This document shows, one piece after another, positions 4,299 through 59,156 of a stretch of 59,352 bases of DNA (position 1 is its first letter; each line of letters starts with the position of its first letter). The notes below the pieces were generated by a model, which was not told the origin of the DNA, did no database searches, and was given only the letters and a program-made list of their open reading frames with translations. Position numbers and translations under genes: made by a program. Source of the DNA: a phage; the sequence record PZ564402.1; one strand, written 5' to 3'.

Positions 4299-6881
4299 TT
4301 AAACTTCGTCATCCCACTCGCCCGGTACAACTTTACCGACGATTTTTTCCACCTCCGCGTTATGCTTTTTCAATGTTTTCTGCGCCCATTCGGAGTTAAG
4401 TTTTCCAGACTCGTCGTACGCACCTTTGACACGCTTTCTGACGTACACGCGACCGGACTTCCCGCCGAATTTCAGTACGCCGCCCGGCTTAAATCCGATC
4501 TCCATAAGCATGTTTTTGAGGCGAGACGTTTTCGGCATTTCCACATCTTCGGTTTCAAGGAAGGCGTCTCGCAACGATGGTACGAAGATGATGTCGCGGT
4601 GGACGCCCGGCGTTGTCCCGTCACGCAGCATTGATACTACCGCACCTTCTACCCCATCGTTTGACGCGTCGGCCATGATGGAAAACGCTTCGGTGTCCTG
4701 CGGTGCATGGCCTTTGTGGTCAAAGTCCTCGCTGATCTCCCATTCGAGGAACCATTTCTTCAATGCAGGGACGTGGTTGTCGATCGCCCGGTACACGTTC
4801 TTGAAGAAGCGCGAGCGTTCCGCCTTCGACCCGTATACCCGCTCCATGTCCAGATGATTTTCGGCCTGCGTGGACACTACCAGATAACGACGCTGGTTTT
4901 CATCGAGTGGCAACGCGTTAAAGTGGTTAGTGAACATCATTTTACTACTGGTGTTCACGACAACCTTTGGCTTGCGGCCTTTCGGTTCCACCTGAAAACG
5001 GTCATTGGTGATATACTCTTTCTGCCGCTCGATGGCGCTGTAGCGGTCGCCCTTGTCGTACACCTCTTCCACGATTTTCAGGATGTCGCCTTCCGCCCAA
5101 TCACTGAAACGGCCGTTCATCACGGAGTTTGAAACGTAGCCCACGTTTTTGCGTCCTAACATGGCTGACATGAGCACGCCTAACGTCGATTTACCGGAAC
5201 CGTGCGCGCCGCGAATCAGTAACGAGTAGTTGATGCGCTTCGTCGGGTGCTGGATAATCCACGCCATCCAGTCCATAACGTATCGGCGTTCCTTGTCATT
5301 CGGGAAAAGCACGACAAAGAAGTCCTTGATGATCTCCACGGCCTTTTTATCGTACGGCGAAAGCTCGTCGGCAGGCTCCGGAATGGAATCCGGGTCGAAA
5401 GAGTTGAGCCACGTCTTCCCGGACTCGTCTATAAAGAATTCCGGGCCATTTACCCCCGGCTTCGGCTTCCACAAGGTTTCTTCCATATCACCGTGCATCG
5501 CCGGGTAGTACATGGCGTCACAAACGATAGGGATCGGCCTGACCAGCGATGCAAAAGTGATAGGTTTAATCGTTTCTTCCTCGAATTTGCACATATTTGC
5601 GTACGCGAAGTCGAAAGCGCCCTTAGAAATGTAAGAACCGGACGATTTATCGATCAAACAGTCATTTTCTTCCGAAAAAACGAATTTTTTCAGCCAAATC
5701 GGCATTTCTTTTGAGCCATAATCGAAGCCTAATTGCTCCTTTTTATCGTTCGCAGTCATCCGGTAGTTCTTGATCCGCAGGTACGCTTCGGCCGCAACTT
5801 GGACGATCGTCTTACGGGTCATGCCGAAAATCTGCTCTTTGCGGAAGGATTCGGCCCATGCGTTCCAGTCTTTCTCGTCAGTACACTCGGCAAACGCCTC
5901 GCGGTACTCGATGGCCTTCTCTTCCTGCTCGGCTTTCTCGATTTCACGAACTTCGGTGATGATCGAGCCTAAAGTTACGAGGCGGGATGCGTTGTGCGCG
6001 AAGCCCTTATCCCACTTGTATTCGAAATCACCATCGTCGAAGTTGTGCGCCTGCATGGCCCACTCGCGGGCAATGGATTTCGCTTCGTCCTGATCCCGGC
6101 AGGAGATTTGCAGCGCGGCCAGCACCTTGATGTAGTTCTCGTAATCCTCCGGATTCGGGTACTTCATGACAAGATCGCGAAGGTCTTCGTACGTGCCGTC
6201 CCATTTCCGGATACCCGCCGTTGCCGCCCAATCCTCTTCGTCCGCCGTTCCGATGGCTTCGTACCCGTTCATCGGGCGCTTGACCATCGTCCAGCCCTGC
6301 TCTTTGGCGTAACGGTCAAACTCCGCCGCGATTTCACGCGCGGTATCGAGGCTGATCTCTTCGAGGTCGAAATCGGCTGCGTTGTTCAGCGGATTCTCGT
6401 CGTCGAGCCAGTAATAATCGCGGTTGGTGTCCGGGTGGATACCGTACGCGACGAACTGCTGGCCGTCGGCGAGGATTTCAACCGCATGGCGCTGGCCGAA
6501 GTCGTCTTCCCATACGCCGGACTTCACTTTCGAGAATGGCGATTCCGTCCGGAACAGAAAGAGTTTCTTTGGTGCCCGTCCGATACGACATGGCGCGCGG
6601 CCAACATTCTCCAGCACCCAATCCGCCATATGCGCCACGGCGTCTTCATCGTAAACGTCGATGTCAACCGCCGGGGTGTATTTGGTCAGAATCCCGATGC
6701 CGTTTTTCGTGTAGCGTTCCGCCCAACGCTGGATCTGCTCCTTATCGTTAATTGTTCTTTCCCAATCCTTACCGATGGGGCGTTTACCCGCGCCCTTCTT
6801 ATCGGCGTCCGGGGCGTAGATAGGTACAACGGTGTACCCATTCCCCCAAAGCGTTTCGCCGTACTCTTGCCAGTAATTCAT
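4299..6881 (-). CDS. bifunctional primase-polymerase / SF3 (D5-like) helicase, 860 aa
   Basis: N-terminal prim-pol motifs (VDIDVYDED, YGIHPD), Walker A GAHGSGKST in C-terminal half; acidic C-terminus WDDEV. Confidence 0.8.
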   Translation of the reverse strand: MNYWQEYGETLWGNGYTVVPIYAPDADKKGAGKRPIGKDWERTINDKEQIQRWAERYTKNGIGILTKYTPAVDIDVYDEDAVAHMADWVLENVGRAPCRIGRAPKKLFLFRTESPFSKVKSGVWEDDFGQRHAVEILADGQQFVAYGIHPDTNRDYYWLDDENPLNNAADFDLEEISLDTAREIAAEFDRYAKEQGWTMVKRPMNGYEAIGTADEEDWAATAGIRKWDGTYEDLRDLVMKYPNPEDYENYIKVLAALQISCRDQDEAKSIAREWAMQAHNFDDGDFEYKWDKGFAHNASRLVTLGSIITEVREIEKAEQEEKAIEYREAFAECTDEKDWNAWAESFRKEQIFGMTRKTIVQVAAEAYLRIKNYRMTANDKKEQLGFDYGSKEMPIWLKKFVFSEENDCLIDKSSGSYISKGAFDFAYANMCKFEEETIKPITFASLVRPIPIVCDAMYYPAMHGDMEETLWKPKPGVNGPEFFIDESGKTWLNSFDPDSIPEPADELSPYDKKAVEIIKDFFVVLFPNDKERRYVMDWMAWIIQHPTKRINYSLLIRGAHGSGKSTLGVLMSAMLGRKNVGYVSNSVMNGRFSDWAEGDILKIVEEVYDKGDRYSAIERQKEYITNDRFQVEPKGRKPKVVVNTSSKMMFTNHFNALPLDENQRRYLVVSTQAENHLDMERVYGSKAERSRFFKNVYRAIDNHVPALKKWFLEWEISEDFDHKGHAPQDTEAFSIMADASNDGVEGAVVSMLRDGTTPGVHRDIIFVPSLRDAFLETEDVEMPKTSRLKNMLMEIGFKPGGVLKFGGKSGRVYVRKRVKGAYDESGKLNSEWAQKTLKKHNAEVEKIVGKVVPGEWDDEV

Positions 6882-7398: not shown

Positions 7399-7818
7399 AT
7401 GTCTGGTATCTTCGAACAACTGCTGGCTGAACAACAAAAAACTAACACCCTGCTGGAAGGCGTTCTGGCAGCATTGAAAGGCGGCGCGGTGAATACCTCC
7501 GCTGACGCTGGTAGCGAAACCACCGAAAAAACCACCACCACCACCAAAGGCGGTGCTAAGGGCGGCGCGAAAGGCGGTGCAGGTAAAACCGAAACTAAAG
7601 CGGCCAAGCCTAAGCACACCAAAGACGAAGTAGTCGCTGCTGTCGTCGCGGTTAAAGACGCGTTCGGCGCGCCGGAAGCCAAGAAAATCACCGCTCACTT
7701 CGGCCTCGCGAGAGTCGCGGAAGCGAAGGAAGAACACTTCGACGAAATCGTTGAAATGTGTGAAGCCAAACTGGCTGAAAAAGATGAAGGCGGTAACGGC
7801 GAAGAAGACGACGTTTAA
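7399..7818 (+). CDS. low-complexity Lys/Gly/Thr-rich protein with acidic C-terminus (139 aa)
   Basis: GGAG RBS; KGGAKGGAKGGAGK repeats; ends EEDDV; followed by hairpin terminator. Confidence 0.6.
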   Translation: MSGIFEQLLAEQQKTNTLLEGVLAALKGGAVNTSADAGSETTEKTTTTTKGGAKGGAKGGAGKTETKAAKPKHTKDEVVAAVVAVKDAFGAPEAKKITAHFGLARVAEAKEEHFDEIVEMCEAKLAEKDEGGNGEEDDV

Positions 7819-7880: not shown

Positions 7881-8210
7881 GTGACCAGCATTACTTTCAC
7901 CAACGTTTCTACTACAGGCGGCGCAGTTCTCGCGCGCACTTGGGCGGAGTTTCGTTTTCAAATCGGTGATCGCGATGTGCTGTTCAGAGTTACTTCCCCT
8001 GTTTCGAAACACGAAGCGCCGCTGCTCGTAACCCACGCATCATCCGGTCTTCGAGTATGCGACGTCTGGTGGGACGACGTGGCGAAGACTCGCTTTAACG
8101 CAGGCCGCAATAATTACAGCGGGGCAGGCGCTAGGGCATTAGTAGCGACGATTGAGCGAGTCGGCCAACACCGATTCCTCAACGCGATAAAGGCGTATCC
8201 GAATGAGTAG
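7881..8210 (+). CDS. hypothetical protein (GTG start, 109 aa)
   Basis: GGAGAGGA RBS 5 nt upstream of GTG. Confidence 0.5.
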   Translation: MTSITFTNVSTTGGAVLARTWAEFRFQIGDRDVLFRVTSPVSKHEAPLLVTHASSGLRVCDVWWDDVAKTRFNAGRNNYSGAGARALVATIERVGQHRFLNAIKAYPNE

Positions 8211-9543
8211 TAAGTCACTGTTAGTCCGCATCATGCGGGAATTCGGCGGTGGCGGCCACTCAATCTTCGCGCCTTCTGCGTCAGCGCGGTGGATAGCATG
8301 TTCCGGGAGCCTGATAGCCGGGCTTTTCGAGCATGACGAAACCATCTACGAGGCGGCGGAAGGCACGGTGGCCCACGGAATCGCCGAACAATGGCTGCGA
8401 ACGGATGTCCGGCCAACCCATTTAATCGGCACTGTCGAGACGATCACGGAAGGCGATGTCAGTCATGACATCCCGATCACGCGGTCAATGCTCGACGCAG
8501 TTCAGGAATACGTGGACTGGTGCCGATTTGAAGAGGGTGAAATGTTCACGGAAATTCGGGTATGGTTCACAGACCTGATGCCGCGAGCAAACCCGGATGA
8601 ACCTGACGAAGAACCGGAAGAGTTTGTCGCTCAGGGCGGAACGGCGGATAACATCATCATCCGTGACCGCACCTTGATCGTGACCGACCTGAAATACGGT
8701 ACTGGTGTTCAGGTTTTCGCGGAAGGGAACCCGCAGGCGCTACTTTACGCGTACGGTGCGTACCGCGCTTTTGCGGATGAATACGAGTTTGACCGTATCA
8801 TCATCCGGATTGCGCAGCCGCGACTCGACCACTTCGATACGTGGGAAATCACGCTTGACGAGTTGTTGGAGTTTGCGGAGTACGCCCGGGAGCGGATTGC
8901 AGCGGCATGGAGCCTTACCGCGCCGCGCCGCGCATCCCTGAAAGGGTGTCGCTTTTGCCGGGCAGCACATAACTGCGCAGCGATAGCGTACATGATGGAA
9001 TGTGCAGTGGGTGGGGATGTGGAATTCCTTGAAGCCGAATTCGGGGAGGAAGAAATGTCAGTATTGCGTGATGCGCTGGCGCAGGAGTATAAATTCCGGC
9101 GTGCGCAGTTCGGAAACCTGACAACCGAGCAGATGGCTAAGATCCTGCCATACCGCAAGGTGGTCGAAAACTGGTTCTCGCGCCTTGACTTCGAACTGGA
9201 ACGCCGCGCAATGAACGGTGAGAAGGTACCGGGTCAAAAGCTGGTTGAGTCGCGGACAAACCGCAAATTCGCCAACGAGAAAGATGCGATCGCGTTGTTC
9301 AAGTTCCTCGACATCGAAGAGGACAAGTACATCGAGCGCAAACTGCGTACTCCGGCGCAGATGGAAGAAGTGCTTAGGGATGAATTGGGCGTGTCCCGGG
9401 CTGGCGCGCCAAACATTATCGCGGGGATCGTTTACAAGCCGGAAGGCAAACCGACACTGGCACCGCTGACCGATAAGCGGCCACCACTGGACGGCAAGTA
9501 TTCCGGGGCGTGGGACGATGAAGATGATGACGACGAAGTGTAA
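8203..9543 (+). CDS. PD-(D/E)XK (RecB/Cas4-like) nuclease, 446 aa
   Basis: Motifs LIVTDLKYG (D/ExK) and QALLYAYG (QxxxY), Cys cluster CRFCRAAHNC; acidic C-terminus WDDEDDDDEV. Confidence 0.65.
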   Translation: MSSKSLLVRIMREFGGGGHSIFAPSASARWIACSGSLIAGLFEHDETIYEAAEGTVAHGIAEQWLRTDVRPTHLIGTVETITEGDVSHDIPITRSMLDAVQEYVDWCRFEEGEMFTEIRVWFTDLMPRANPDEPDEEPEEFVAQGGTADNIIIRDRTLIVTDLKYGTGVQVFAEGNPQALLYAYGAYRAFADEYEFDRIIIRIAQPRLDHFDTWEITLDELLEFAEYARERIAAAWSLTAPRRASLKGCRFCRAAHNCAAIAYMMECAVGGDVEFLEAEFGEEEMSVLRDALAQEYKFRRAQFGNLTTEQMAKILPYRKVVENWFSRLDFELERRAMNGEKVPGQKLVESRTNRKFANEKDAIALFKFLDIEEDKYIERKLRTPAQMEEVLRDELGVSRAGAPNIIAGIVYKPEGKPTLAPLTDKRPPLDGKYSGAWDDEDDDDEV

Positions 9544-9597: not shown

Positions 9598-10194
9598 ATG
9601 GCCGAGAAATTAGTCCCTGCGAAGAAAGTCAAGAATGGCGTGCTGTATAAATCTGGTCACATCAAGATTTCTAACGTACGTGCTTCTTACCCGCACCTCG
9701 ATAAGCCGTACGGCGGCGAAGACGGCGGCGAGCCGAAATACTCGCTGACACTTTTGATGCCGAAAGAAAGCCACGGCGAGATCGAGAAAATCATCCGCGA
9801 GCAGATCGAAGTCACCAAGAAGAACCACAAGACAGGCGCGCTTAAAGTGGCTCCGTCCATGTTGTTCATCAAAGACGGCGACACCGATTTCCCGGACAAA
9901 CCGGAATGCGAAGGGATGTGGGTTATCTCAGCGCGCGAAAGCAAACGCCCGGATGTGTATAACATCGAGCGCGAAGAGTTGACTACTTCTTCCGAAATTC
10001 TGGAAGAGATCTACGGTGGTTGTTGGGTGTCTGTCGTCATCCGTCCGTGGTCGCAGGAAAACAAATTCGGCAAACGCGTCAACGCCAACCTGATTTCCGT
10101 TCTCAAACGCAAAGACGACGAGCCGTTCGGTGAAGGTCGCGTTGACACGTCTGATGCGTGGGATGAAGACGAAGATTGGGAAGACGAAGTGTAA
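9598..10194 (+). CDS. ssDNA-binding protein, T7 gp2.5-like (198 aa)
   Basis: N-terminal ASYPHLDKPYGG...YSLTLLMP resembles gp2.5 YAYIAKPDYG...YKVDLTIP; acidic C-terminal tail DAWDEDEDWEDEV. Confidence 0.6.
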   Translation: MAEKLVPAKKVKNGVLYKSGHIKISNVRASYPHLDKPYGGEDGGEPKYSLTLLMPKESHGEIEKIIREQIEVTKKNHKTGALKVAPSMLFIKDGDTDFPDKPECEGMWVISARESKRPDVYNIEREELTTSSEILEEIYGGCWVSVVIRPWSQENKFGKRVNANLISVLKRKDDEPFGEGRVDTSDAWDEDEDWEDEV

Positions 10195-12589: not shown

Positions 12590-14111
12590 AGCGCTCGCGT
12601 ATTGCCTGCGGACGGTTAAACTGAACCGCAGCGACATGCACGACTATCAGGACGAAGGCGTCCAGTTCATCAAAGACCATCCGTACTGCGGCATGTTCGT
12701 AGACCTCGGCTTGGGTAAGACTGTCATGACCGGGACGGCCATGCTAGACCTGATCGCGGACGGCGAAATCAACAAAGTCCTCGTCGTCGCGCCGAAGCGA
12801 GTGGCCCGTACCGGGTGGCCGACGGAATTCGACGAGTGGGGCCATCTGTGCTTCTACAAGATGTCGATTATCGCCGGAAACGCCAAAGAGCGCGCAGCGG
12901 CCGCGAGTAAGGACTGCCATTTTTACACGATCAGCGTCGATAACATCGCGTGGCTGTGCGAGCACTTCAAGACGAAATGGCCGTTCGACGCCGTGGTGCT
13001 GGACGAGTCGAGCATGTTCAAATCCCACACCTCGCAGCGCTTCAAACTGCTGCGCCGGGTGCGGAAGTACATCAAACGGATCGTCGAGTTGACGGCCACG
13101 CCTGCGGCCGAAGGGTACATGGGTATCTTCTCGCAAATTTACCTGCTGGACGAAGGCGAGCGCTTTGGCTCCACCATCGGCGGTTATCAGGACAACTACT
13201 TCACGCAGAACCGCTACAACTTCAAATGGAAACTTCGCCCCGGTGCGGAAGACGAGATTATTCGGAAGATTTCTGATATATGTTTAGTCATGAAAGCGGA
13301 AGACTACCTTGACATGCACGAACCGAATTTCGTTCCTGTCCCGGTCGAGTTAGACGGGGAGACGGCCGAGCGGTACCGCATGATGGAGGAAGAGAGCCTC
13401 GTCGAGATTATGCCGGACGATTTCGATGAACATCTGGATGACCCAATCGTGATCGAAGCGGAGCAGGCCGCGTCTTTGCAGTCGAAGCTATTGCAGATGT
13501 GCTCAGGCTTCATCTACGACACGAAAATCGTTGGCATAACGCAAGACGACAAGGTCATTAAGCAGAAGGACACGTACAGGCTGCACGACCTGAAATTCGA
13601 TGCACTGGAAGAACTGCTGGAAACCACGCTGGCCGATAAAAACGTGCTGATCGCCTATCACTTCAAGCCGACCCTCGAACGACTGAAAGAGCGGTTTAAA
13701 GATCTGGTGGTCATGGATGATGACGGTAAGTGCATCAAGAAGTGGAACGCCGGAAAGATTCGACTGCTGGCCGCGCACCCTCAGTCAGCGGGACACGGTT
13801 TAAACCTCCAGCATGGCGGCCACGTCATCGTCTACATCGACAATCCGTGGTCACTCGAACGCTTCCTGCAATTCAATGGCCGATTGCACCGTCAGGGGCA
13901 GAAGTACCCGGTTACGATCTACCAGTTCAAAGCCATGCTGCGAACACCGAACGGGCTTCTGGCCGAGACGGCGGACGACGTAGTCATACAGGCGCTGGTC
14001 GAAAAGGAAGACGTGCAGGACGCGTTCTTCGAACTGCTCGAACGTATCAAAGGGCGCATCAAACGCCGCAAGAAATCGAAAAATAAAGGGGTATGGGATG
14101 ACGAAGAGTAA
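12552..14111 (+). CDS. SNF2/SF2 family helicase (start uncertain: TTG 12552 or ATG 12636)
   Basis: Q-motif HDYQDEGV, Walker A GLGKT, DExx-like VVLDES, helicase C motifs; C-terminus VWDDEE. Confidence 0.75.
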   Translation: MQTLKTTLSPLSRALAYCLRTVKLNRSDMHDYQDEGVQFIKDHPYCGMFVDLGLGKTVMTGTAMLDLIADGEINKVLVVAPKRVARTGWPTEFDEWGHLCFYKMSIIAGNAKERAAAASKDCHFYTISVDNIAWLCEHFKTKWPFDAVVLDESSMFKSHTSQRFKLLRRVRKYIKRIVELTATPAAEGYMGIFSQIYLLDEGERFGSTIGGYQDNYFTQNRYNFKWKLRPGAEDEIIRKISDICLVMKAEDYLDMHEPNFVPVPVELDGETAERYRMMEEESLVEIMPDDFDEHLDDPIVIEAEQAASLQSKLLQMCSGFIYDTKIVGITQDDKVIKQKDTYRLHDLKFDALEELLETTLADKNVLIAYHFKPTLERLKERFKDLVVMDDDGKCIKKWNAGKIRLLAAHPQSAGHGLNLQHGGHVIVYIDNPWSLERFLQFNGRLHRQGQKYPVTIYQFKAMLRTPNGLLAETADDVVIQALVEKEDVQDAFFELLERIKGRIKRRKKSKNKGVWDDEE

Positions 14112-14667
14112 TGCGCCACTGGCAACCCGGAATCGCCGCTCTAACGCGCCGGACGCCGACACAGAAGCGATGATCTTTCAGGGCTGCAACATCACGCAAC
14201 TGGCAAAACTGTTCCGCATGGAGCGCCGGGACATCACGCCGAAAATCATGGATGTCCCGCCTATCGGCGAGCGTGGCGGGTACCCGATCTACGCGGTTCA
14301 CGAAGTGGCCCCGTACCTCGTTAAGCCGCTGTACGATGTCGAGACGTACCTGCGCCGCATGAATTTCAAGGATCTGCCGAAGGAGTTGTCGAAAGAGTTT
14401 TGGGCCGGGCAGCGTGCAAAGCAGGACTTCGACATCAAAGCTGGCAACCTGTGGGAAACAGAGAAGGTGATCGAGCACTTCGGCGAGGCGGTGAAGGTAC
14501 TGCGCATGTCGATGCTGCTCATTCCCGACACGCTGGCGCGTCAGGCCGGACTCAGCGAGCCGCAACGTCAGGTCATCACGTCATCCATTGACGCCATGCT
14601 GAACGACCTGTCGAGCGCGCTGATCGAGAAGTTCAACGGCGACGAGGTGGACGACGATGAAGTTTAA
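14098..14667 (+). CDS. terminase small subunit, Nu1-like winged-HTH (189 aa)
   Basis: NITQLAKLFRMERRDITPKIMDVPPIGERGGYPIYAVHEV resembles lambda Nu1 N-terminal DNA-binding domain; directly upstream of and overlapping TerL; C-terminus DDDEV. Confidence 0.55.
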   Translation: MTKSNAPLATRNRRSNAPDADTEAMIFQGCNITQLAKLFRMERRDITPKIMDVPPIGERGGYPIYAVHEVAPYLVKPLYDVETYLRRMNFKDLPKELSKEFWAGQRAKQDFDIKAGNLWETEKVIEHFGEAVKVLRMSMLLIPDTLARQAGLSEPQRQVITSSIDAMLNDLSSALIEKFNGDEVDDDEV

Positions 14668-28300: not shown

Positions 28301-29593
28301 TCGGAGGGTGATGCCCTTACCAAACGTCTTGACGCCGTTGTGGCCGCGCGCAAGAAGGCAGAAACGACCCTCTTCAACTCGCAGCAACGTACGACGGGTG
28401 GTATCAAGAAACAGGAAAACGCATTACAGGCGCTGATCAACAAGTACAACGAGTTGAATGCCGCCGTCGGTGTGAAGGAAGTTAAGATTGACCCTAATGC
28501 CACGTTTGACGACCGTCTGGCCGCTAAACTGGCCGCCGTCAATACGCAGTACGATCAGCTGATCGCCAAGTCGAAGAAACTCGGGACTGGCGGGCAGAAT
28601 CTGGCCGGGCAGTTCGAAGACCTGCGCAAACGCAATCTGGAATACGCGACCACGCAGGCCAAACTCGAAGAACTGAAACGCATTGAGGATCAGTTAAACT
28701 CGCAGCAGGAGACGAAGAAAAACCTGCTGGACGAAATCAATGCCAAACGGCAGGCCGGGGTTATCTCTGAAAACGAAGCCGTCGCGCAGACGGTAGCCTT
28801 GTATCAGAACATGAATACGGGCATCGCGTCGTCGGCCGAGCAGCTTGACGCCTTCGCGCAGAAGATTAAAGACACGATGTCGCCGGAAGAATTCAGCCGC
28901 ATCATGGCTCAGATTGCATCCGTCAAAGCCGGGCTGGTGGACGTCACAGGCACCTTCACGACGATGGACACGACTGTCGTTCAGGGCGTGCTGGACGGAA
29001 TGAGCACGGCGCTGTCATCCATCGTTGATGAAATGGCGTTGGTGGTGGCCGGGTCACAAAGCATTGGCGATGCGTTCTCGAATCTTGGCGTGGCCGTGGC
29101 ACGGTTCTTCGCGGACTTCTTGCAGAAGATCGCAATGGCAATCTTGCAGCAGATGGCGCTCAACGCGTTGGCCTCTATGGGGGGTGGCATCGGTTCGGCG
29201 GCCGTTGCATTAGGCGGCACCGTGGCGAAACATAACGGCGGCACCGTCGGCAGTAAGACAACTGGCGGCACGCAGATGAAGGGCGGGATCAGCCCGGCCA
29301 TGTTCGCGAATGCCCCGCGCTTCCATGATGGCGGACTGCCGGGCTTGCGTTCTGACGAGGTTCCGACCATTCTGCAAAAAGGCGAACAGGTGCTGTCGAA
29401 GGATGACCCGAATAACGTGCTTAACCAGTCGCGCGGCGGCGGCCAGACGGCGCAGTCGCCACAAGGTCTTCGCTTCGTGCTGGTGGATGACAGGTCGAAA
29501 GTGCCGGAAGCCATGAACACGCCGGAAGGAGAAAAGGCGGTGATGCAGATTCTTCAACGCAACGTACCGACGTTGAAAAACTTAGTGGGATAA
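25298..29593 (+). CDS. tail tape measure protein (1431 aa)
   Basis: Very long Ala/Gln-rich alpha-helical ORF after chaperone pair; AAGGA RBS. Confidence 0.9.
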   Translation: MANSKDVELRIRARDYSQKPLKAVTSAIEQMAKAQDEQRKAAERGEVSTRDLEAAYKKLESAGSQLLKLNSLIEVFKRQNQAMTEATAKTEGLRQKQADLQKTYDSTEKVTQKQERALARVTRQVEAATRAEANQAERVNRATRDLERYGIETSKVGAAQAGIVTSVAQVNRVLERQDEIISTSAAAAAQAKVIRGLQQQADQAMATARGYQTLGRVVQQATGQLGPLGTQIQTIVSPAEAARRTLSGLENQVHGVTAELARNSKEVENVAQKVRMLNEANKTVSALAQQIDLYRQQVATLRNARTEYQQARQDVIKLAQQMRTATTDTGALGIQMQAAQQRLSAAATAMRNTATAARSTQAALRAAQVDTRNLSDAEARLISTSQQSAAALNTLSTATNRNSQAARDGSKAWSLFRDEGRTTLSFLQRIRGEVLALTTTYVGFQGAINLAGGAIDAYKNRQQAMVKIANVVGNSQAAINKEWEYMVGLANTLGIDITTLSQSYTKFAVSAKAVGLSLQDSKFIFESVAKAGRVFHLSQDDMEGVFRALEQMLSKGQVYAEELRGQLGERLPAAFALFAKGMDMTTAELMKAMENGEVTGEAVINFAREQAKAIDAQLATAQKGVDAMEARARNAMNAFQLALADAGFIEAYVQMLNKITDFLNSEDGRAAAVKLGEAFGTLADAVTWCIENVDTLITALSVLAGLKVVQFIGGMISGLKNLLPLFSTLGKIGDGIITMLEGVAARMIAAQGAVGLLGIALKGLTRLIPIVGWALLAYDIGAIMYDQSQTFREAVNAIIRDFKNLGNQLAAVVESIPALLYDLAVSVLRPITTMFADTTQAIIKWIADVLKLIPGVGQGLSEWAMSIGDDLTKEQRGFLESTGRIWDDVNKQWVKLNDEMVAKNADATDKIRGQVNQLAADMAAITKGEGFQFTQDPGTGVTKRSREIAGLTKELGKMEEAAKKADVASRKAEQRKNLSGRLAIIDEEFAPQYARAKSIGGSEGDALTKRLDAVVAARKKAETTLFNSQQRTTGGIKKQENALQALINKYNELNAAVGVKEVKIDPNATFDDRLAAKLAAVNTQYDQLIAKSKKLGTGGQNLAGQFEDLRKRNLEYATTQAKLEELKRIEDQLNSQQETKKNLLDEINAKRQAGVISENEAVAQTVALYQNMNTGIASSAEQLDAFAQKIKDTMSPEEFSRIMAQIASVKAGLVDVTGTFTTMDTTVVQGVLDGMSTALSSIVDEMALVVAGSQSIGDAFSNLGVAVARFFADFLQKIAMAILQQMALNALASMGGGIGSAAVALGGTVAKHNGGTVGSKTTGGTQMKGGISPAMFANAPRFHDGGLPGLRSDEVPTILQKGEQVLSKDDPNNVLNQSRGGGQTAQSPQGLRFVLVDDRSKVPEAMNTPEGEKAVMQILQRNVPTLKNLVG

Positions 29594-29598: not shown

Positions 29599-31287
29599 AT
29601 GGCTTTGAGCGGACTGCGCCCCGCGCGCGAACAGTTTAACCAAGCAATCTACGACGCCCTTAACGGGGCGTACCAGCTTTACGTTCAGGACGTCTTCGGT
29701 CAGGCTGCGGCCAACCAGACGTACTACATGGCGAAGTGGATGAAGTTGAAGGCCGGGTCTTATACGGCGGTCATGTATGTCGATGACTCCGGCACCCTGT
29801 CTATCGATCATGCCGTCGTCGCGACTGCGGCCATCGGCACCAATCCGAACAGCGGGGAGTTTACGATCTCCGCCGACGGCGTGTACCGCTTTGACTGCAT
29901 CTACTCCAACGTCCCGGCCGACACCCCGGCGTACATGGCATTCCAGCTAATCCTTGACGGCCAGACCGTCGAGGTTAGCCGGGCCAACGACTTTATCGCG
30001 GACATCGTGCCGATCCCGGATAAGGCATTGGGGCCGAAGCCGCCATACTCCGACGACGTCCGCCTGACGTACCCGGTGTTCCTGCCGCTGCCGAACTGGA
30101 AAGACGGCGTCACCGAGCGCATCGAGTGGCAAACTGACGTCATGATTTCCGAGTCCGGCGCAGAACAGCGACGCCCGATCCGCCTGCACCCTCGCCGCTC
30201 ATTCGAAGCGACGTTCCTGCGTTGGGAAGAAAAGCGTACGCTGCTCGATACGACCATCGCGGGCGTCGGCCAGTCTCCGTTACTCCTGCCTTTGTGGCAC
30301 GACATGACAGCCACGGAAAACGATGCGCCAGCCGGGTCGGTGGACATCTTCGGCCAGTTCCGGGTGAAAGACTTCAACGTGGGTGACGTGGTCATGTTCA
30401 ACCGTGGCACGACGTGGGACTATGAGACGAACATCATCGCCGGGCTGGACATTGACGCCGGGCATATGACGCTGACGTTTGGCCTCCAGTCGGACACGCC
30501 GCGAGGCACGCGCCTGTATCCGGTTCGCGTTGCGCAGATCCGGGAGGCGATGAACGGCCAGCAGATGACCGATAGCGTGTCACAGACCCAAGTCCGGTTC
30601 TTCTGCACCGAGAACTATGACCTGACGCCATCGTGGTCAGACTTCCCTGTCTACACCCGTACCGGGCTGCACATCTTCGTCCTGCCGGAAGATTGGGGAT
30701 CGTCCAATGAAATCACGTCTGACCGCCTGACCTACAATTTCGATAACCAGTCCGGCCCGGTGGTCATTGTTGACCCGGGCGGCCAGAACTACGGCACCGT
30801 GAAGAAGTCGTACACCATTAACGGCCGCACAGCGGATCGGCAGTTCCGGCAGATCCTGTTCGCGCTCCGTGGCCGCACCAAGACTTTCCACCTGCCGCTC
30901 GATACGAATGACTTCATTCTGTCCCGCGACATCAACCCGGCCGACGGCGCGCTCGTAGTCCGGCGCTGCGGTTATACTCAGTACATCAGCGGGACGCAGG
31001 AAACGAAAAGTGACATCATGGTCGAACTGTACGACGGCACCAGAATCCCGACCACCATCATTTCGAGTCGTATCGTTGGGGATGAAGAGTGGCTATTCCT
31101 GTCACAGTCCATCCCGGCGACGTCCAGAAACGACGTCCGGCGCATCGGATATATCCCCGTAGCGCGATTAGATGTTGACGGAATCGAAATAAAACGGTTG
31201 ACTGACTCGGCGGGCGTAAGTCAAGTTTCTCTGACCTTCAAGTTTTTCGACGATCGGAGGATTGCAACGCCCTTACCATTATCATAA
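29599..31287 (+). CDS. minor tail / tail-tip protein (562 aa)
   Basis: Position between tape measure and J-like gene. Confidence 0.45.
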   Translation: MALSGLRPAREQFNQAIYDALNGAYQLYVQDVFGQAAANQTYYMAKWMKLKAGSYTAVMYVDDSGTLSIDHAVVATAAIGTNPNSGEFTISADGVYRFDCIYSNVPADTPAYMAFQLILDGQTVEVSRANDFIADIVPIPDKALGPKPPYSDDVRLTYPVFLPLPNWKDGVTERIEWQTDVMISESGAEQRRPIRLHPRRSFEATFLRWEEKRTLLDTTIAGVGQSPLLLPLWHDMTATENDAPAGSVDIFGQFRVKDFNVGDVVMFNRGTTWDYETNIIAGLDIDAGHMTLTFGLQSDTPRGTRLYPVRVAQIREAMNGQQMTDSVSQTQVRFFCTENYDLTPSWSDFPVYTRTGLHIFVLPEDWGSSNEITSDRLTYNFDNQSGPVVIVDPGGQNYGTVKKSYTINGRTADRQFRQILFALRGRTKTFHLPLDTNDFILSRDINPADGALVVRRCGYTQYISGTQETKSDIMVELYDGTRIPTTIISSRIVGDEEWLFLSQSIPATSRNDVRRIGYIPVARLDVDGIEIKRLTDSAGVSQVSLTFKFFDDRRIATPLPLS

Positions 31288-38243: not shown

Positions 38244-39206
38244 ATGCTGAAATTTATGGACGGTTTTGACCAGCTACGCGGCTGGTCTGACGTTACTGAT
38301 GGGCTGACCAAATGCGGGTACACCGTGTCTGGCACGCCCACACTGGAGGAAGGGCGTGTGGCTACGCAGATGGCGGTATCGCTGCCGGACACGGCCAGCC
38401 TGAAACGCGTGTTCACCTCCGGGGCCACGAAGGTCGTGTTTGGCTTTGCCTTCCGCGCTATCGGGAAACGCCACACCCTCGTCACCATCAAAGATGTTGC
38501 GACGGTTACGTGGGACGAGACTAACGGGAAGATCACGGCCGCTGGCGGTACCGGAACAGCGGTGCTGCTGCTGGACTTGTGGTACTACATCGAAGTGGTT
38601 CTGGACAAGACTACCAGCACGATCGAGGTGTACGTGAACAACGGGCCGGACATCACCGCGCCATCGCCGTCGAGCGCTAACCCGGTCACTAACTATGAAG
38701 TCACATGGGCGGGCGTTGCCACGGCGCAGTACCTTCTCGACGACATCCAGTTCATCGACAACCAGCCGGGTAAGTATACCGGGCGCATCGGGCCTATCCA
38801 GATCACCAGCCGCTTGCCGATGGTGGACGTGGACAAAGAATGGTCGCCGTCATCCGGCAATGATCACTACCCGCTCGTCTACAATCAGCCGCCCGTCGAA
38901 GGGTCGTACATCCAGTCGAACACGTCCGGCGCGACCGACACGTTTCTATCAAACACCGTCATCCCTGATACGCAAAACATTCTGGCCGTCGGCATGACCG
39001 TGCTGAACAAAAAGTCAGACGTGGACAACCGTCAGTTAGGCATGGTCATCGGCCAAAAAGGCGACACGCAAAAAGAAGTTATCGACGCGGCGCTATCCAC
39101 GACTGAAAAGTATAGTTATGCTGTGTTCGAGACGAACGCGGCCGGGCAAGACTGGAATGACGAACGACTCAGCGAAGCGCCGTTCGGCGTCATCGTAAGA
39201 CCATAA
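38244..39206 (+). CDS. tail-associated paralog 2 (320 aa)
   Basis: MLKFMDGFDQ and LWYYIEVVLDKTTSTIEVYVNN shared motifs. Confidence 0.6.
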   Translation: MLKFMDGFDQLRGWSDVTDGLTKCGYTVSGTPTLEEGRVATQMAVSLPDTASLKRVFTSGATKVVFGFAFRAIGKRHTLVTIKDVATVTWDETNGKITAAGGTGTAVLLLDLWYYIEVVLDKTTSTIEVYVNNGPDITAPSPSSANPVTNYEVTWAGVATAQYLLDDIQFIDNQPGKYTGRIGPIQITSRLPMVDVDKEWSPSSGNDHYPLVYNQPPVEGSYIQSNTSGATDTFLSNTVIPDTQNILAVGMTVLNKKSDVDNRQLGMVIGQKGDTQKEVIDAALSTTEKYSYAVFETNAAGQDWNDERLSEAPFGVIVRP

Positions 39207-39219
39207 GGAGCATACCGAA

Positions 39220-40239
39220 ATGTTTAAATTCTGTGACGGGTACGACCACTATGCCGAAATCGGCGCGAAGGGTACGGCCCTACAAAGTTATCTGGAAGCC
39301 GCCGGGTACGTGGTGCGTAATGCCAGCGATTCCACGTTTTCCGTTGTCGAGGGCCGCCGGACAGGTGCGCGTGCGCTGAAATTCACCGTGGCCGCCAGTT
39401 CATCTGTCAACGCCTCACTGTCATGGGGATTCACCACGACGGCCTCGTCAGTCGTCTTCGGATTTGCCATGAAAGCCGGGCTGTCCCGTATGCGTATCGC
39501 GCGCATCGAGAACATCGTGGACATCGAGTGGGACACCACGACCGGGAAAATCCGCGTAGGCGAGCAGTTAGGCGTCAACCCGCTGATCCTGAACGCATGG
39601 TATTACTTTGAAATCGAGATCGATAAGACGGCCAATACCGTCAAGATCTACGCGAATAACGAATTGCAGTTAACCGTTACGCCATCGAGTGCGCCGACCA
39701 CCACGTACACAATCGTTTGGGGGCAGACGGGTACCGCGCCGAATGCGGGCGAACAGACACTGGACGATTTCTACGTTATCGATGGTTCTGGTAGCCGCAA
39801 CAACGCGCGCCTGACTCCGGTCGAAGTGACCAGTCGTATGCCAACGGCCGACGTTTCTACGCAGTGGGAAGTCGTGAACGCCTCATCTGCCACGCCGCAC
39901 TATCAGATCGTGTCACAGCTTTCCCCGGGCGGCGAGTCGAAGCCATACCTGCAATCGAACACCGCAGGAGCGACCGATATGTACCGTTCGAACGTGACGC
40001 TGCCGAACAATAACCAGATCTTCGCCGTATCTGTTATCGCGTACGCCCGTAAAGGCGACCTTGATGACCGTAAACTCGGTCTGGTAGTCAACACGGAAGG
40101 CGGAACGCCGACTGAAATTCAGGTGCCGCTGACCGAGTCGTACAAGTATTATCAGGCATCGTTCGAGCAAGCGCCGGGCGGAAGTGACTGGAACCAGAAC
40201 AACGTCGAATCTTTGCAATTCGGCATCATCACTCGATAA
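39220..40239 (+). CDS. tail-associated paralog 3 (339 aa)
   Basis: MFKFCDGYDH and AWYYFEIEIDKTANTVKIYANN shared motifs. Confidence 0.6.
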   Translation: MFKFCDGYDHYAEIGAKGTALQSYLEAAGYVVRNASDSTFSVVEGRRTGARALKFTVAASSSVNASLSWGFTTTASSVVFGFAMKAGLSRMRIARIENIVDIEWDTTTGKIRVGEQLGVNPLILNAWYYFEIEIDKTANTVKIYANNELQLTVTPSSAPTTTYTIVWGQTGTAPNAGEQTLDDFYVIDGSGSRNNARLTPVEVTSRMPTADVSTQWEVVNASSATPHYQIVSQLSPGGESKPYLQSNTAGATDMYRSNVTLPNNNQIFAVSVIAYARKGDLDDRKLGLVVNTEGGTPTEIQVPLTESYKYYQASFEQAPGGSDWNQNNVESLQFGIITR

Positions 40240-47735: not shown

Positions 47736-47765
47736 AATATAGGTTATACACGCGACGTATGTCAA
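47736..47765 (-). promoter_or_regulatory. early promoter, conserved family (-35 TTGACA, spacer with TACGTCGCGTGTA, -10 TATATT)
   Basis: One of four near-identical minus-strand modules (47.7, 50.2, 53.5, 56.8 kb), each intergenic. Confidence 0.6.
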
Positions 47766-50207: not shown

Positions 50208-50236
50208 ATATTAATTACACATGTCGCGTATGTCAA
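50208..50236 (-). promoter_or_regulatory. early promoter, conserved family (-35 TTGACA, -10 TAATAT) followed by leader hairpin + U-tract
   Basis: Conserved module; hairpin CTCCCG...CGGGAG then T6 before RBS. Confidence 0.6.
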
Positions 50237-53469: not shown

Positions 53470-53498
53470 ATATTAGTCGTACACGCGACGTACGTCAA
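53470..53498 (-). promoter_or_regulatory. early promoter, conserved family (-35 TTGACG, -10 TAATAT)
   Basis: Conserved spacer TACGTCGCGTGTACGAC; intergenic. Confidence 0.6.
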
Positions 53499-54151: not shown

Positions 54152-55225
54152 TTAAACCTCGTCGTCGTCTTCGTCGTTCAGCGTTCCGGTGTACTCAACA
54201 ACCTGCCCGGCCTCGTCCAGCACGCTGATCACCGCACGCAGGGACTTATCGAGTTGGAACAGGTTCGCCATCATGGTCAGGAACTGGCCGCCATCGGTGC
54301 CGTAACGTTCGAGCGTGGCGTCGTAGTTCGCATCGACGTCGGCCTCGCCGATATGGATACCGGACAGGATGGCTTTGTCGGACAGGCGGAAGTACACGGT
54401 GTCGATGCCCGGGCATTGCGTATCGACTTCGAGATCCAGTGCGCGGACAGTCCAGTGGCGGGACAGCAGGTCAACCACCGCCTCGTCTTTGAAGATGTCC
54501 GTGTCCTTCATCTTAACGTCGTCACCATCGTCGTGTTTCAGGTGGATAAACGCATCGCCCTTGATGCCGTCCTGCTGGCCGAGAACCGCGCGCTGCATTA
54601 ACTGGCGCAGCTCATACTCGCTCGGCAGGAGGTGTTCGACGGGCCATGTGCCGAGCGCGGTACGGATCAGCGCGCTGCACTCTTCTGCCGTCTTCGCGCT
54701 CGACGTGAACACGTACACGAACGGGGCGGACAGGATGACGTTGACGCGGGACGGGCGGATAGGCGCGTATTTCAGCATTTCCGCTTCCACGTCGTCCTTC
54801 ATCTGCGCCCAATCCTTGCGGTTCGGCTCCCAACCCTCGATCTCTTTCTCCCGCAACGCGGCCATGCGCTTCACGACTTCATTTCGTACGCTGACGCCGG
54901 GCAACACACGTTCGCGCTTTTCGATCTGGAAGACGATGGCGTTTGTCCCGGGGATGGCGAGCGCAAACTTGCTGTCAACCTCTTCGCCGTACGCTGCAAA
55001 GCCCATTGTCTTGTAAGACGCCTCCGGCGGATCTGACACTTCATGCTTTTCGAGTGCATCGCTTAACGCTCCTTTAGCGAAAGACGTCACCGCCTCTTCG
55101 TCAACGTTCGGCAGATTCAGGATCAGGCGGTGCAGCGGCTTGACCTTCTCGTTACCGTCGTTGGCCGCGTCGTACAGCGCGCCGAGGTGCAAGATAATGG
55201 CTTTCTCATAACCCTTGATTTTCAT
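54152..55225 (-). CDS. RdgC-like recombination-associated protein with acidic C-terminal tail
   Basis: Segments VLPGVSVRNEVVKRMAALREKE and AEECSALIRTALGTWPVEHLLP resemble E. coli RdgC as I recall it; ends NDEDDDEV. Confidence 0.5.
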   Translation of the reverse strand: MKIKGYEKAIILHLGALYDAANDGNEKVKPLHRLILNLPNVDEEAVTSFAKGALSDALEKHEVSDPPEASYKTMGFAAYGEEVDSKFALAIPGTNAIVFQIEKRERVLPGVSVRNEVVKRMAALREKEIEGWEPNRKDWAQMKDDVEAEMLKYAPIRPSRVNVILSAPFVYVFTSSAKTAEECSALIRTALGTWPVEHLLPSEYELRQLMQRAVLGQQDGIKGDAFIHLKHDDGDDVKMKDTDIFKDEAVVDLLSRHWTVRALDLEVDTQCPGIDTVYFRLSDKAILSGIHIGEADVDANYDATLERYGTDGGQFLTMMANLFQLDKSLRAVISVLDEAGQVVEYTGTLNDEDDDEV

Positions 55226-56367: not shown

Positions 56368-56739
56368 TTAAACTTCGTCGTCGTCCGCGACGTCGGTGGC
56401 CGTACAGGTTACGACGGCCTGAATGAACATGCGGCCAGACGGGTAAGTCACCAGCGCGGACTCCATGCTGAACCGTTGGCCGTGGTGCTTCATGGCATTC
56501 CGGATGGAGGAATTTAGGCTGGCCCGCATCTTCGCTTTGAGGGCATTGGCCTCGTCCTGTACCTGCGAAAGCGTACGGTCAAGCGGGAGTTCTTGGGACA
56601 GGGTGTACACGCCACCGACTTCCAGCGCAATGAGGTTCCCCACGACGCTGTACACGCGCACGCGTGACGGCAGTTCAACATCCGGCTCGGTCGTCATCAT
56701 TGCGCCAGTCAGTTCGGCCGGGCTTAGTTCTTTGCTCAT
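56368..56739 (-). CDS. hypothetical early protein with acidic C-terminus (123 aa)
   Basis: GGAG RBS; first gene after promoter 56782-56810; ends DVADDDEV. Confidence 0.5.
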   Translation of the reverse strand: MSKELSPAELTGAMMTTEPDVELPSRVRVYSVVGNLIALEVGGVYTLSQELPLDRTLSQVQDEANALKAKMRASLNSSIRNAMKHHGQRFSMESALVTYPSGRMFIQAVVTCTATDVADDDEV

Positions 56740-56781: not shown

Positions 56782-56810
56782 ACAATAGTTCTACACGCGA
56801 CGTATGTCAA
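56782..56810 (-). promoter_or_regulatory. early promoter, conserved family (-35 TTGACA, -10 TATTGT)
   Basis: Conserved spacer TACGTCGCGTGTAGAAC; drives leftward early operon. Confidence 0.55.
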
Positions 56811-56871
56811 TTCATTTCATCCGGCAATTATGATGACCGGGCGAAACTCCAGTTTAGTTTCTGTCGGCGAG

Positions 56872-57100
56872 GTTTCCGAAGTAAGACCCGGCGTCGCGGG
56901 GCCGAGCGGGGGCAGGCTGACTTTTTCGAGTAAGCCCGGAACGCCAACCCTTCCGTCGGCCAGCTTTTTCAAGTAAGCCGGACAGCCGGGTGAAATTGGC
57001 CCGACGCTGGTGGATAAAAACCGCAACCGGGTAGGTTTTTGAAGTAAGGACTGGCGCAGTCGTTCAAAAATTTTGGGCAGGCTAGGTTTTTCAAGTAAGC
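56872..57100. repeat. five iteron-like direct repeats, consensus (G)GTTTTTCAAGTAAGCCCGG
   Basis: Copies near 56872, 56921, 56964, 57033, 57083 in the 600-bp noncoding gap between divergent early promoters. Confidence 0.65.
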
Positions 57101-57405
57101 CCGTCGGAAATTTTTGTAGAGAATGTCAGGCCCGGCGCGGCCCGGCGTCATGGTGTGCAGCCGTTTTTGGTGGGATTTTGTACAAATCGTTATAAATCAA
57201 TGACTTAACCTATGCGCCGATCGACCTGTTTTGGCCCGGTTATCGTGGATTTTTCGTATAGAATTCAAGGGTTTAGGACGTGGCGCCGCGTGCCGTTTGG
57301 CGGTGTGCCGGGGCGGGGGCCGTGGGGCGCGGCGGTGCAATGCGGCCCGGCGTGGCGGTCGGTGGCGCTTTTATGTGCGGTTACTCAAATAATATGAAAA
57401 AAGAT

Positions 57406-57434
57406 TTGACGCACGCCGCGTATATCAATTACAT
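57406..57434 (+). promoter_or_regulatory. sigma70-like promoter (-35 TTGACG, 17-nt spacer, -10 TTACAT) with UUCG leader hairpin
   Basis: 47-bp near-identical copy of promoter at 831; upstream A-tract. Confidence 0.6.
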
Positions 57435-57499
57435 TTGAATTCCCTTCGGGGGACGGGGCAAAAAGTCCCGGCGATAAACCAACTTAATGAGGTGTCACG

Positions 57500-57757
57500 A
57501 TGGAAAAGGTATATAACGCGATCAAGGGTCAAACGTTGCAACATTGGTTAACGATTGCCATCAAGCGCGACGAAAACGGCGGCGCTACGGTCGAACTACG
57601 CAGCACGATCCACGTTAACAAGGTTAGCCCGGTGTCGTTTTCATGGGGTAAGGAATATAGCGACGCGGATATTCTGAATGATGCCGATTTATTACGCGTC
57701 ATTTATCAGAAGTATGGACACGAAATTTTCACCGCTGATTTTACACGTAACATTTAA
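57500..57757 (+). CDS. hypothetical early protein (85 aa)
   Basis: First ORF after promoter 57406. Confidence 0.5.
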   Translation: MEKVYNAIKGQTLQHWLTIAIKRDENGGATVELRSTIHVNKVSPVSFSWGKEYSDADILNDADLLRVIYQKYGHEIFTADFTRNI

Positions 57758-57775
57758 TTTAATAAGGGGATAACT

Positions 57776-58315
57776 ATGCAAACTATTAACACTAAATATC
57801 ACAACGGGAAAATCGTTGCGACTTCTTGGAATGGCTGGACGCGTTCAGAATATGACGCGGCGTTATCCAGTGAGCAAAACCACCGCGCCGCCGCTGAAAA
57901 GCTAATCATTAAACTGAATAAAGGCCGCTCGATGGAATGGGGGATCGTGAATAGTGCGCCATCCGTGCCGGGCGTGCGTGGTAAGGATAACGGCTGGACG
58001 TTTATTATTGGTTATGTGCCAGAAGTCGCGCCCGCGCATATGTCAATCACTGTTAAGTTCTGCCCGGCAACAAATAAAGGCCCGGCATACATGCGCGCTT
58101 ATTCGTGGTTAGTGCCGCGCGGGATCAAGGTTAACTATTCGCCACGCGTCGCCGACGGGTCAGATATTCAGGCAAACGCACGTTATGCGGCGGGCATCAT
58201 GTTAGACCGCATTAATGAGATATGCCGCGAAGGTGGCGATCTCTTAGGCTGGAAAATTGCGGACTACGTGCAATTGTACGACGGCGATCGCCTGTTCACT
58301 CTGAAATCTAATTAA
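57776..58315 (+). CDS. hypothetical early protein (179 aa)
   Basis: AAGGGGA RBS. Confidence 0.5.
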   Translation: MQTINTKYHNGKIVATSWNGWTRSEYDAALSSEQNHRAAAEKLIIKLNKGRSMEWGIVNSAPSVPGVRGKDNGWTFIIGYVPEVAPAHMSITVKFCPATNKGPAYMRAYSWLVPRGIKVNYSPRVADGSDIQANARYAAGIMLDRINEICREGGDLLGWKIADYVQLYDGDRLFTLKSN

Positions 58316-58532: not shown

Positions 58533-59156
58533 ATGCGTACTATTTCACTTTATACTTTTAACGAACTGTCCGACGTCGCGAAAGCAAAAGCGATCGAAAA
58601 TTACCGCCAATATAAGAGCGGCGATCAATTCGACTTTTCTGAATATAAAGAAAGCCTTCGTGAATTTTGTGATGATCTATGCGTCGAGGTGCGCGACTGG
58701 TCTTATGGTTTAGGGGGTTGCGATGTAAGCTATGAAATTAATCATAGTTCAGATGTGGAAGATTTATCCGGCGTGCGTGCGTACAAGTGGATTATTAATA
58801 ATGTTACGGCGTTTAATACGCGTCGCCGCGTTTATCGTGAATACCGTGAAGTCAATAACCACGGTTTTAAACAAAAGGCGTCCTTCGTTAAATGGGTTAG
58901 CGGGGTGTTCAACGCGTCCGACGATTGCCCGTATACAGGCGTTTGCTGTGACGAATCATTATTGAAGCCTTTCCGTGACTTCCTGAAAAAGCCAGATGAC
59001 CGCACGATCGCGGAACTGATACGCGAAGCGATAGACGGGTATTGTTCGGATATGCTCGACGAACTGGAAAGCCGCGAAAGCGACGAATATTTACGGGATG
59101 ATCTGGAAAACGGCGACACGCCTGAATTTTTTGAAAACGGCGCTATTTATAACTAA
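58533..59156 (+). CDS. hypothetical early protein (207 aa)
   Basis: ORF coupled to upstream gene. Confidence 0.5.
   Translation: MRTISLYTFNELSDVAKAKAIENYRQYKSGDQFDFSEYKESLREFCDDLCVEVRDWSYGLGGCDVSYEINHSSDVEDLSGVRAYKWIINNVTAFNTRRRVYREYREVNNHGFKQKASFVKWVSGVFNASDDCPYTGVCCDESLLKPFRDFLKKPDDRTIAELIREAIDGYCSDMLDELESRESDEYLRDDLENGDTPEFFENGAIYN

Follow-up and report, generated by a model that had tools for sequence, protein, structure and literature searches.

A deeply conserved array of 25-bp direct repeats between the divergent early promoters of Chi-like phages as a putative protein-binding array

The non-coding gap between the two divergent early operons of a Chi-like Salmonella phage contains an array of five same-direction copies of a 25-bp unit, which is the most conserved non-coding element of its phage family. 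Because the unit, its orientation, its location and a 71/51-bp spacing are kept while the spacer sequences diverge, comparison among relatives strongly supports the reading of a functional, putatively protein-binding array. We tentatively take this array to be the core of the phage replication origin, as part of an origin-type module, and we weigh this against a purely transcriptional switch, which is nearly as likely, and against less probable alternatives. Arrays of this type are familiar; unusual here are the deep conservation of a non-coding 25-mer across hosts, the lack of any protein that tracks it and its clean loss in one genus.

The DNA analysed, hereafter the window, is the whole of record PZ564402.1 (59,352 bp), a Chi-like Salmonella siphovirus genome (Casjensviridae, Chivirus) that is complete and circularly permuted. 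Chi-like phages have been isolated widely and are candidates for therapy and biocontrol; function has been assigned to almost none of their early genes, and their origin and early control circuit are unmapped. No description of their repeats, origin or promoters was found in the searchable literature, and the array appears to be undescribed so far. Across the array and its flanks, identity to iEPS5, SPN19, YSD1, Chi and many other phages is 90-93%. The genome is mosaic elsewhere: a 207-aa protein (58533-59156, + strand) is unmatched in Chi, ZCSE8 and YSD1, ZCSE8 lacks the first two genes of the rightward operon (57500-58315 of the window, + strand), and the primase shares only 78-83% identity with its ZCSE8 and Chi counterparts, compared with 95-100% for most other proteins. 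The 12-nt cohesive end GGTGCGCAGAGC described in the literature (PMC4342425) was found at 3364-3375, 5.7 kb from the array across the window junction.

The gap hosting the array measures 760 bp and separates a leftward operon, whose first gene encodes a DUF7609 protein, from a rightward one starting with a DUF7300 protein gene. A sigma-70 consensus scan called one promoter for each flanking operon:

56782-56810, - strand: PL, leftward early promoter, TTGACA-17-TATTGT, its -35 hexamer and spacer forming a 23-bp palindrome; kept in relatives
57406-57435, + strand: PR, rightward early promoter, TTGACG-18-TACATT, sharing the palindromic -35/spacer element of PL; an A-rich tract lies upstream

The -35 hexamers of these consensus matches are 596 bp apart, bearing out the gap of about 600 bp between divergent early promoters described in the first-pass annotation. 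That annotation had also reported five copies of a motif of roughly 18 bp; five direct copies on the same strand are indeed present, but the length has to be corrected, since a logo of 63 units taken from 14 phages extends the unit to about 25 bp, CAnCCnGCnAGG-TTTTT-SAAGTAAG. The units of the window are as follows:

56861-56885, + strand: repeat unit 1, degenerate, CTGTCGGCGAGG-TTTCC-GAAGTAAG
56910-56934, + strand: repeat unit 2, GGGCAGGCTGAC-TTTTT-CGAGTAAG
56953-56977, + strand: repeat unit 3, CCGTCGGCCAGC-TTTTT-CAAGTAAG
57024-57048, + strand: repeat unit 4, GCAACCGGGTAGG-TTTTT-GAAGTAAG
57075-57099, + strand: repeat unit 5, the best copy, GGGCAGGCTAGG-TTTTT-CAAGTAAG

The core TTTTT(C/G)AAGTAAG starts at 56873, 56922, 56965, 57036 and 57087, at intervals of 49, 43, 71 and 51 bp from start to start, and is degenerate in copies 1 and 2 (TTTCCGAAGTAAG and TTTTTCGAGTAAG). 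The whole unit is bipartite and asymmetric, with a CCnGC..AGG block and an SAAGTAAG block on either side of the T5 tract. The logo shows an invariant G at -6 and nearly invariant C-9, C-8 and A-3, and none of these four positions played a part in picking the units. Helical phasing of the units was not significant (Rayleigh p of about 0.1). The repeats were also considered as promoters in their own right and rejected, as the scan calls only PL and PR and, by inspection, neither strand displays sigma-70, sigma-54, sigma-32 or sigma-28 geometry; the GG..GC spacing of the unit is 2 nt too long for the sigma-54 pattern.

The motif is concentrated at this locus. A 15-mer search allowing up to 3 mismatches returned 6 matches in 59 kb against 1.08 expected, a number reached by none of 100 shuffled sequences, and four of the six fall inside the array, within about 180 bp. 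Likewise, the exact 8-mer SAAGTAAG is found five times in the genome, four times within the array, which is the only clustered multi-copy repeat of the genome apart from a different cluster near cos.

Conservation in related phages had been suggested as a check on the array, and it holds in at least eight genera, with copy numbers ranging from 3 to 5. The array is present in Chivirus, Enchivirus, Redjacvirus, Zhonglingvirus, Yonseivirus, Kokobelvirus, Maxdohrnvirus (phage SS2019XI) and two metagenomic lineages, always once per genome, in the same gap and with the same unit and orientation relative to both operons. Related phages that carry it are:

Hafnia phage Enc34: 5 copies
Providencia phages Redjac, PSTCR9 and PatoteraRojo: 5 copies
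'Xanthomonas' phage XAP3: 4 copies
Klebsiella phage Soft: 4 copies
Providencia phage Kokobel1: 3 copies
Temperate Pseudomonas phage vB_Pae-SS2019XI: 4 perfect copies, at 39093-39221
Two further metagenomic lineages: array present

Phages of Salmonella, Hafnia, Providencia, Klebsiella and Pseudomonas share the 13-nt core without a single difference, although their proteins are only 27-56% identical; for SS2019XI, the proteins shared with the window are only 27-51% identical. Unlike the units, the spacer sequences diverge between genera, although the spacings of the last copies (43-45, 71-73 and 51 bp) are common to Chi, Redjac, XAP3 and others. Retention of the units while the spacers diverge rules out chance or the remnant of a recent duplication. 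The distances from the array to the promoters vary among genera, from 18 to 97 bp for PL and from 108 to 313 bp for PR, and in Redjac and Soft the first unit lies just 18-30 bp upstream of the PL -35 hexamer.

In Chivirus the cores are invariant and the left halves of the units occur in two versions, one in the window and ZCSE8 and the other in Chi, YSD1, phage 35 and BP12C. In Salmonella phage Ariobarzanes an HNH endonuclease gene with its flanks is inserted just upstream of PL (380-1060) and has replaced the left part of the array, leaving three units in a viable phage; several other Chi-like records give a two-piece match with an insertion of about 550 bp, similar to that of Ariobarzanes. 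The array of Soft is split between units 2 and 3 by a 168-bp GC-rich insert with inverted repeats, a layout also displayed by a metagenomic relative. The exception is Proteus phage Saba, with no copy of the motif in its whole genome and an inter-promoter gap of only 270 bp that retains only PL, PR and one TATAGAGGA box. Between its primase gene and cos, Saba carries three copies of TCATTTTTTAACCG, one of them after GTAACCGG, together with a TATATAGGATATATAGGAAT box (29370-29540 and 29670-29700); these elements faintly recall the left half and T-tract of the unit and a second motif class described below.

In the sequence collections scanned, the motif was not recovered as an array outside the family. 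Two-copy patterns were confined to Casjensviridae, a scan of viral contigs with a single 14-mer gave only chance-level matches, and no motif arrays were found in plasmids or complete E. coli genomes. Enterobacterial representative genomes held no tandem arrays of the motif, the search returning only unrelated CRISPR-like tandem repeats.

The units are accompanied in the gap by further elements, several of which are also conserved:

57006-57013, + strand: Chi octamer GCTGGTGG, in the 71-bp spacer, overlapping a weak DnaA-like box TTATCCACC (- strand)
57062-57075, + strand: A5T4 tract GTTCAAAAATTTTG, just before the last unit, as in most genera, and kept in Enc34, Redjac, XAP3, Patotera and Soft
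57111-57124, + strand: second motif class, copy 1, a T-tract plus TAGAGAAT, a -10-like box
57180-57210, + strand: AT-rich conserved element AAATCGTTATAAATCAATGACTTAAC, holding an exact IHF consensus at 57195-57207
57250-57264, + strand: second motif class, copy 2, TTTTTCGTATAGAAT, in which TAGAAT matches the -10 consensus at 5 of 6 positions
57265-57372, + strand: G-rich block, non-coding and nearly invariant among Chi-like phages, its top strand G-skewed

The end of the last unit and the box TAGA(G/A)AAT of the second motif class are separated by 17 nt in at least six genera, namely in the window, Chi, XAP3, PatoteraRojo, Soft, Redjac, PSTCR9 and Ariobarzanes, and by 13 nt in Kokobel1. The box occurs 2-5 times per gap and is rare in the rest of the genome. 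A distance of 17 nt centres the last unit near -42 relative to the -10-like box, so that a protein site would cover the place of the -35 element, its distance to the -10 being constant, the geometry of a class-II or MotA-type activator-dependent promoter; such a promoter is predicted here, its -10-like box often having no good -7 T and escaping the sigma-70 scan. The exact IHF consensus is found four times in the genome against 1.15 expected, and two of the other sites flank cos. DnaA-like boxes are limited to a single one near the array, with no enrichment over chance. The genome holds 15 Chi octamers on the + strand and 8 on the - strand, where roughly 1-2 would be expected; the 10-mer at the octamer of the array is inverted in the equivalent spacer of Redjac and is also present in Kokobel1 and XAP3.

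The very GC-rich stretch noted to follow the repeats is confirmed, with 82-88% GC in 40-bp windows at about 57290-57350 and a GC skew of +0.23, and in five genera the segment to the right of the array has a top-strand G skew of +0.21 to +0.33. An ORF annotated as gp63 in phage Chi (KM458633), corresponding to 57212-57397 of the window, spans the G-rich block; we discarded it as a real gene given that 1-bp indels disrupt the frame in phage 35 and also in the other record of Chi, and judged from these alignments the block is conserved as DNA and not as protein. A structured non-coding RNA was likewise rejected, the predicted RNA fold of the block being no more stable than that of shuffled sequences (z = -0.77) and an Rfam search returning one chance-level match only.

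PL and PR belong to a family of early promoters, the other members of which are:

831-860, + strand: early promoter
53470-53498, - strand: early promoter
50208-50236, - strand: early promoter
47737-47765, - strand: early promoter

All of them carry the 23-bp palindrome TTGACATACG-N3-CGTATGTCAA, composed of the -35 hexamer and the spacer, a probable operator for a dimeric phage regulator. Its sequence changes from genus to genus (for example CACATG-N3-CATGTG in SS2019XI), whereas the core of the repeats is constant. A general regulator of the early promoters more likely acts through this palindrome than through the repeats, and we rejected the array as a general early-promoter operator, because the other promoters of the family have no repeats and carry their own palindrome. 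Four degenerate palindromes with no promoter features cluster at 2927-3134, 230-440 bp from cos, and another (3887-3909) lies directly upstream of an HTH_37 gene (3925-4251, + strand) that is missing from Chi and ZCSE8; their positions suggest autoregulation and a sink for the regulator near the genome end.

The first-pass annotation had offered the repeats as a replication origin or as a binding array for an early regulator. Conservation across genera upholds the binding array, and the choice between origin and regulator persists as two readings, the origin being possible and tentatively preferred, the regulator somewhat more doubtful. In the origin-type module that we envisage, where binding, promoter activity, R-loop formation and origin activity are all putative, a phage or host protein would bind the three to five same-direction 25-bp units, and the intrinsic bend of the A5T4 tract together with IHF at 57195-57207 would shape the protein-DNA complex. 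Divergent promoters are expected to create negative supercoiling between them (twin-domain model), and such supercoiling between the strong early promoters would help to open AT-rich patches at 57160-57280. The last unit, at the class-II activator position (about -42) with respect to the TAGAGAAT box, could turn on a rightward transcript, which would enter the G-rich block and might form there a stable RNA-DNA hybrid serving as primer or entry point for the PrimPol-helicase and a Pol I-type polymerase.

Several observations point to this module. The phage has its own replisome, consisting of a PrimPol/SF3 helicase, Pol I, a DEAD-box helicase and an SSB-like protein, and therefore needs an origin. 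The iteron-like direct repeats, their uniqueness in the genome, the exact IHF consensus, the bent DNA, the divergent promoters and the NrS-1 precedent discussed below are all consistent with one, as are the fixed 17-nt distance to the -10-like box, the invariant G-rich block and the existence of a separate operator for the early promoters. An iteron origin is expected to contain at least three direct repeats of about 17-25 bp in one orientation at a single locus, and the five units agree with that. It is also expected to have its cognate initiator encoded beside or around the iterons, and iterons that co-vary with it, as they usually do in well-studied systems; here, no initiator gene lies beside the array, the neighbours being the DUF7609 and DUF7300 genes, and the invariance of the core, the array alleles and the case of Saba all speak against co-variation.

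The same balance emerges from comparison with iteron theta origins such as lambda ori/O, P1 oriR/RepA and the oriV/Rep systems of RK2, F and pPS10. Like the array, these are non-coding, lie beside strong promoters and consist of three to five direct, asymmetric, two-block repeats of 19-25 bp; the IHF site, bent DNA and AT-rich DNA near them have possible counterparts here in the IHF consensus, the A5T4 tract and the AT-rich patches. They differ in that iterons are nearly contiguous, whereas the phage units are 31-83 bp apart, and in that the array has neither a neighbouring initiator gene nor a protein co-varying with its core, is missing from the close relative Saba and is distant from the main AT-rich region of the genome. 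The AT-rich patches near the array are short (35-38% GC at 57160-57210 and 57240-57280), while the least stable and most AT-rich DNA of the genome is the non-coding stretch 3627-3776, with 29% GC over 150 bp; this AT-rich, repeat-bearing stretch surpasses the patches at the array, which counts against the origin. It is part of a non-coding region between cos and the 3' end of the primase gene (3376-3925) that holds short repeats of its own (three copies of TTGTAACC, GTTACAAGTTACAAG and AATAGGGATAA-like sequences) and exact IHF consensus sites at 3423-3435 and 3519-3531, and which could be cosB or the location of a rival origin. Other facts also weigh against the origin-type module: Saba does without the motif even though its replication proteins are 66-79% identical to those of Kokobel1, the core does not change between genera with candidate initiators sharing only 30-38% identity, the helical phasing of the units is not significant, and the -10-like box is often poor at -7 and missed by the promoter scan.

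No candidate for the binder emerged from phyletic, allele or structure comparisons. Searches of the early proteins detected no Rep, O or DnaA-like family, and no Rep-type or origin-binding fold turned up. The primase, polymerase, helicase, exonuclease and SSB-like protein of Saba are 66-79% identical to their Kokobel1 counterparts (69% for the primase), and every protein common to the motif-bearing phages is also found in motif-less Saba. Only a 71-aa and a 90-aa protein, both annotation-free and resembling small membrane proteins, are present in Chi and Kokobel1 but not in Saba. No protein allele correlates with the window-type and Chi-type alleles of the array. The model of the DUF7609 protein (pLDDT 71) gave no significant Foldseek match.

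The primase-helicase itself (gene at 4299-6881, - strand, 6.6 kb from the array) has 860 residues with PrimPol, PriCT_2 and DUF5906 (SF3/D5-type helicase) domains. Its C-terminus had no sequence match to known origin-binding domains, and was modelled with low confidence (pLDDT 58) in a helix-strand-helix-helix-strand-strand, winged-helix-like order with no significant PDB match in Foldseek. Proteins of this type, namely the P4 alpha primase-helicase (ori/crr) and the SaPI Rep helicase, read repeated origin sites directly, and the phage likewise encodes a fusion of PrimPol, PriCT-2 and an SF3/D5-type helicase. The resemblance is limited by the 6.6 kb that separate array and primase gene, by the lack of significant similarity to an origin-binding domain and by the 69% identity between the primases of Kokobel1, which has the motif, and Saba, which has not.

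Among solved structures, the helicase domain is most closely related to the NrS-1 polymerase, which starts synthesis only at a specific 8-nt template sequence; this sequence occurs twice in the middle of the NrS-1 genome and has been proposed as the origin (PMC7102993). The motif described here differs in its length of 13-25 nt and its 3-5 copies on one strand, and sequence-specific priming by the Chi enzyme is hypothetical. We regard as improbable the proposal that the core, instead of a classical double-strand iteron, is either a strand-specific signal for de novo initiation by the PrimPol-helicase, in the manner of NrS-1 and multiplied 3-5 times on one strand, or a docking array for a conserved gammaproteobacterial host protein; if it were true, the core would represent an origin or sensor element of a new kind, common to an entire phage family with hosts from Salmonella to Pseudomonas. 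Should the array be the origin, it would illustrate the targeting of a PrimPol-helicase/Pol I replisome with no obvious initiator. The array offers a handle for experiments, as bait for the binder and as a defined fragment for origin assays, with Saba as a natural negative control.

Transcription-primed precedents for the origin-type module are the middle promoters of T4 read by MotA, the T4 R-loop origins ori(uvsY) and ori(34), and RNA II priming in ColE1. As in MotA promoters, a specific protein site would take the place of the -35 at a fixed distance from a -10-like box and, as in the R-loop origins and ColE1, the DNA downstream is predicted to give a G-rich transcript prone to a persistent RNA-DNA hybrid. 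Homologues of MotA or AsiA were not found in the phage, and the T4 origins use a single site rather than an array. The origin of the lactococcal phage c2 lies between divergent early and late promoters, contains repeats and requires an internal transcript for its function; it resembles the present locus in being non-coding, repeat-bearing and placed between divergent promoters, whereas its sequence, host and replication proteins are unrelated.

The strongest alternative to the origin-type module is a purely transcriptional switch with no role in replication, in which an early phage or host protein would bind the units cooperatively and control PL and PR, either repressing one or both by wrapping or looping, activating the internal rightward promoter at TAGA(G/A)AAT, or both. 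This alternative is less than probable but deserves serious attention. It would account for the position of the array between both early promoters, for the class-II activator geometry of the 17 nt between the last unit and the -10-like box, and for the first unit of Redjac and Soft lying 18-30 bp upstream of the PL -35. A cassette that is dispensable in Saba, that varies between 3 and 5 copies and that is partly replaced by an HNH gene in a viable phage also fits an accessory circuit better than an essential origin. Nevertheless, the early promoters at 831, 47765, 50236 and 53498 have no repeats and possess their own palindromic operator, so that general early control needs no array; the distances to PL (18-97 bp) and PR (108-313 bp) vary widely; an internal promoter would merely re-transcribe the rightward operon; no candidate regulator tracks the motif; and the G-rich block and the IHF site are left unaccounted for.

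Less likely is an array read by a host factor, in which a gammaproteobacterial nucleoid-associated or replication protein would recognise the core, with replication or transcription downstream, and the phage would thereby sense the state of its host or recruit host machinery. Such a factor would explain why a 13-nt non-coding word is unchanged from phages of Enterobacterales to those of Pseudomonas, letter-perfect across five host genera despite protein identities of 27-56%, why none of the phage proteins follows the array in its phyletic or allelic pattern, and why the promoter palindrome changes between genera while the repeat core does not. On the other hand, the lack of tandem motif arrays in the enterobacterial representative genomes, complete E. 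coli genomes and plasmids searched does not favour a host reader, and a fully specified, asymmetric 25-bp unit is unlike the degenerate sites of nucleoid proteins. Inspection of the core against generally known host-factor consensus sequences (DnaA, IHF, CRP, OmpR, PhoB, CpxR, RcsB, NarL and sigma-54, -32 and -28) gave no fit, and the fit to Fis is poor because of G/C in the central 5 bp.

Finally, it is very improbable that the array is a centromere-like partition site (parC/sopC-type) or a terminase-recognition site (cosB-type): its direct repeats upstream of an operon promoter do resemble R1 parC/ParR and F sopC, some Chi-like phages are reported to be temperate (PMC6631126) and the adjacent operon of SS2019XI encodes a protein annotated as ParB-like, but searches of the window found neither a ParA, ParM or ParB homologue nor genes for a partition ATPase or adaptor, copies of the array turned up in neither plasmids nor prophages and no plasmid-like state is known for it, while cos is 5.7 kb away and is itself flanked by a different repeat cluster and two IHF consensus sites.

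Seven proteins of the window end in a common acidic tail, -DDDEV, -DDEV or -EDDV:

4299-6881, - strand: primase-helicase
7399-7818, + strand: gp4-like protein
8203-9543, + strand: DUF2800 exonuclease
9598-10194, + strand: DUF2815 SSB-like protein
14098-14667, + strand: TerS
54152-55225, - strand: RdgC-like protein
56368-56739, - strand: DUF7609 protein

Counterpart tails read -DDDL in SS2019XI, -DDEL or -DDDL in Saba and -DDDI or -EEEM in Kokobel1. They look like T7-style tails docking on one hub protein, with a last residue that co-varies by genus.
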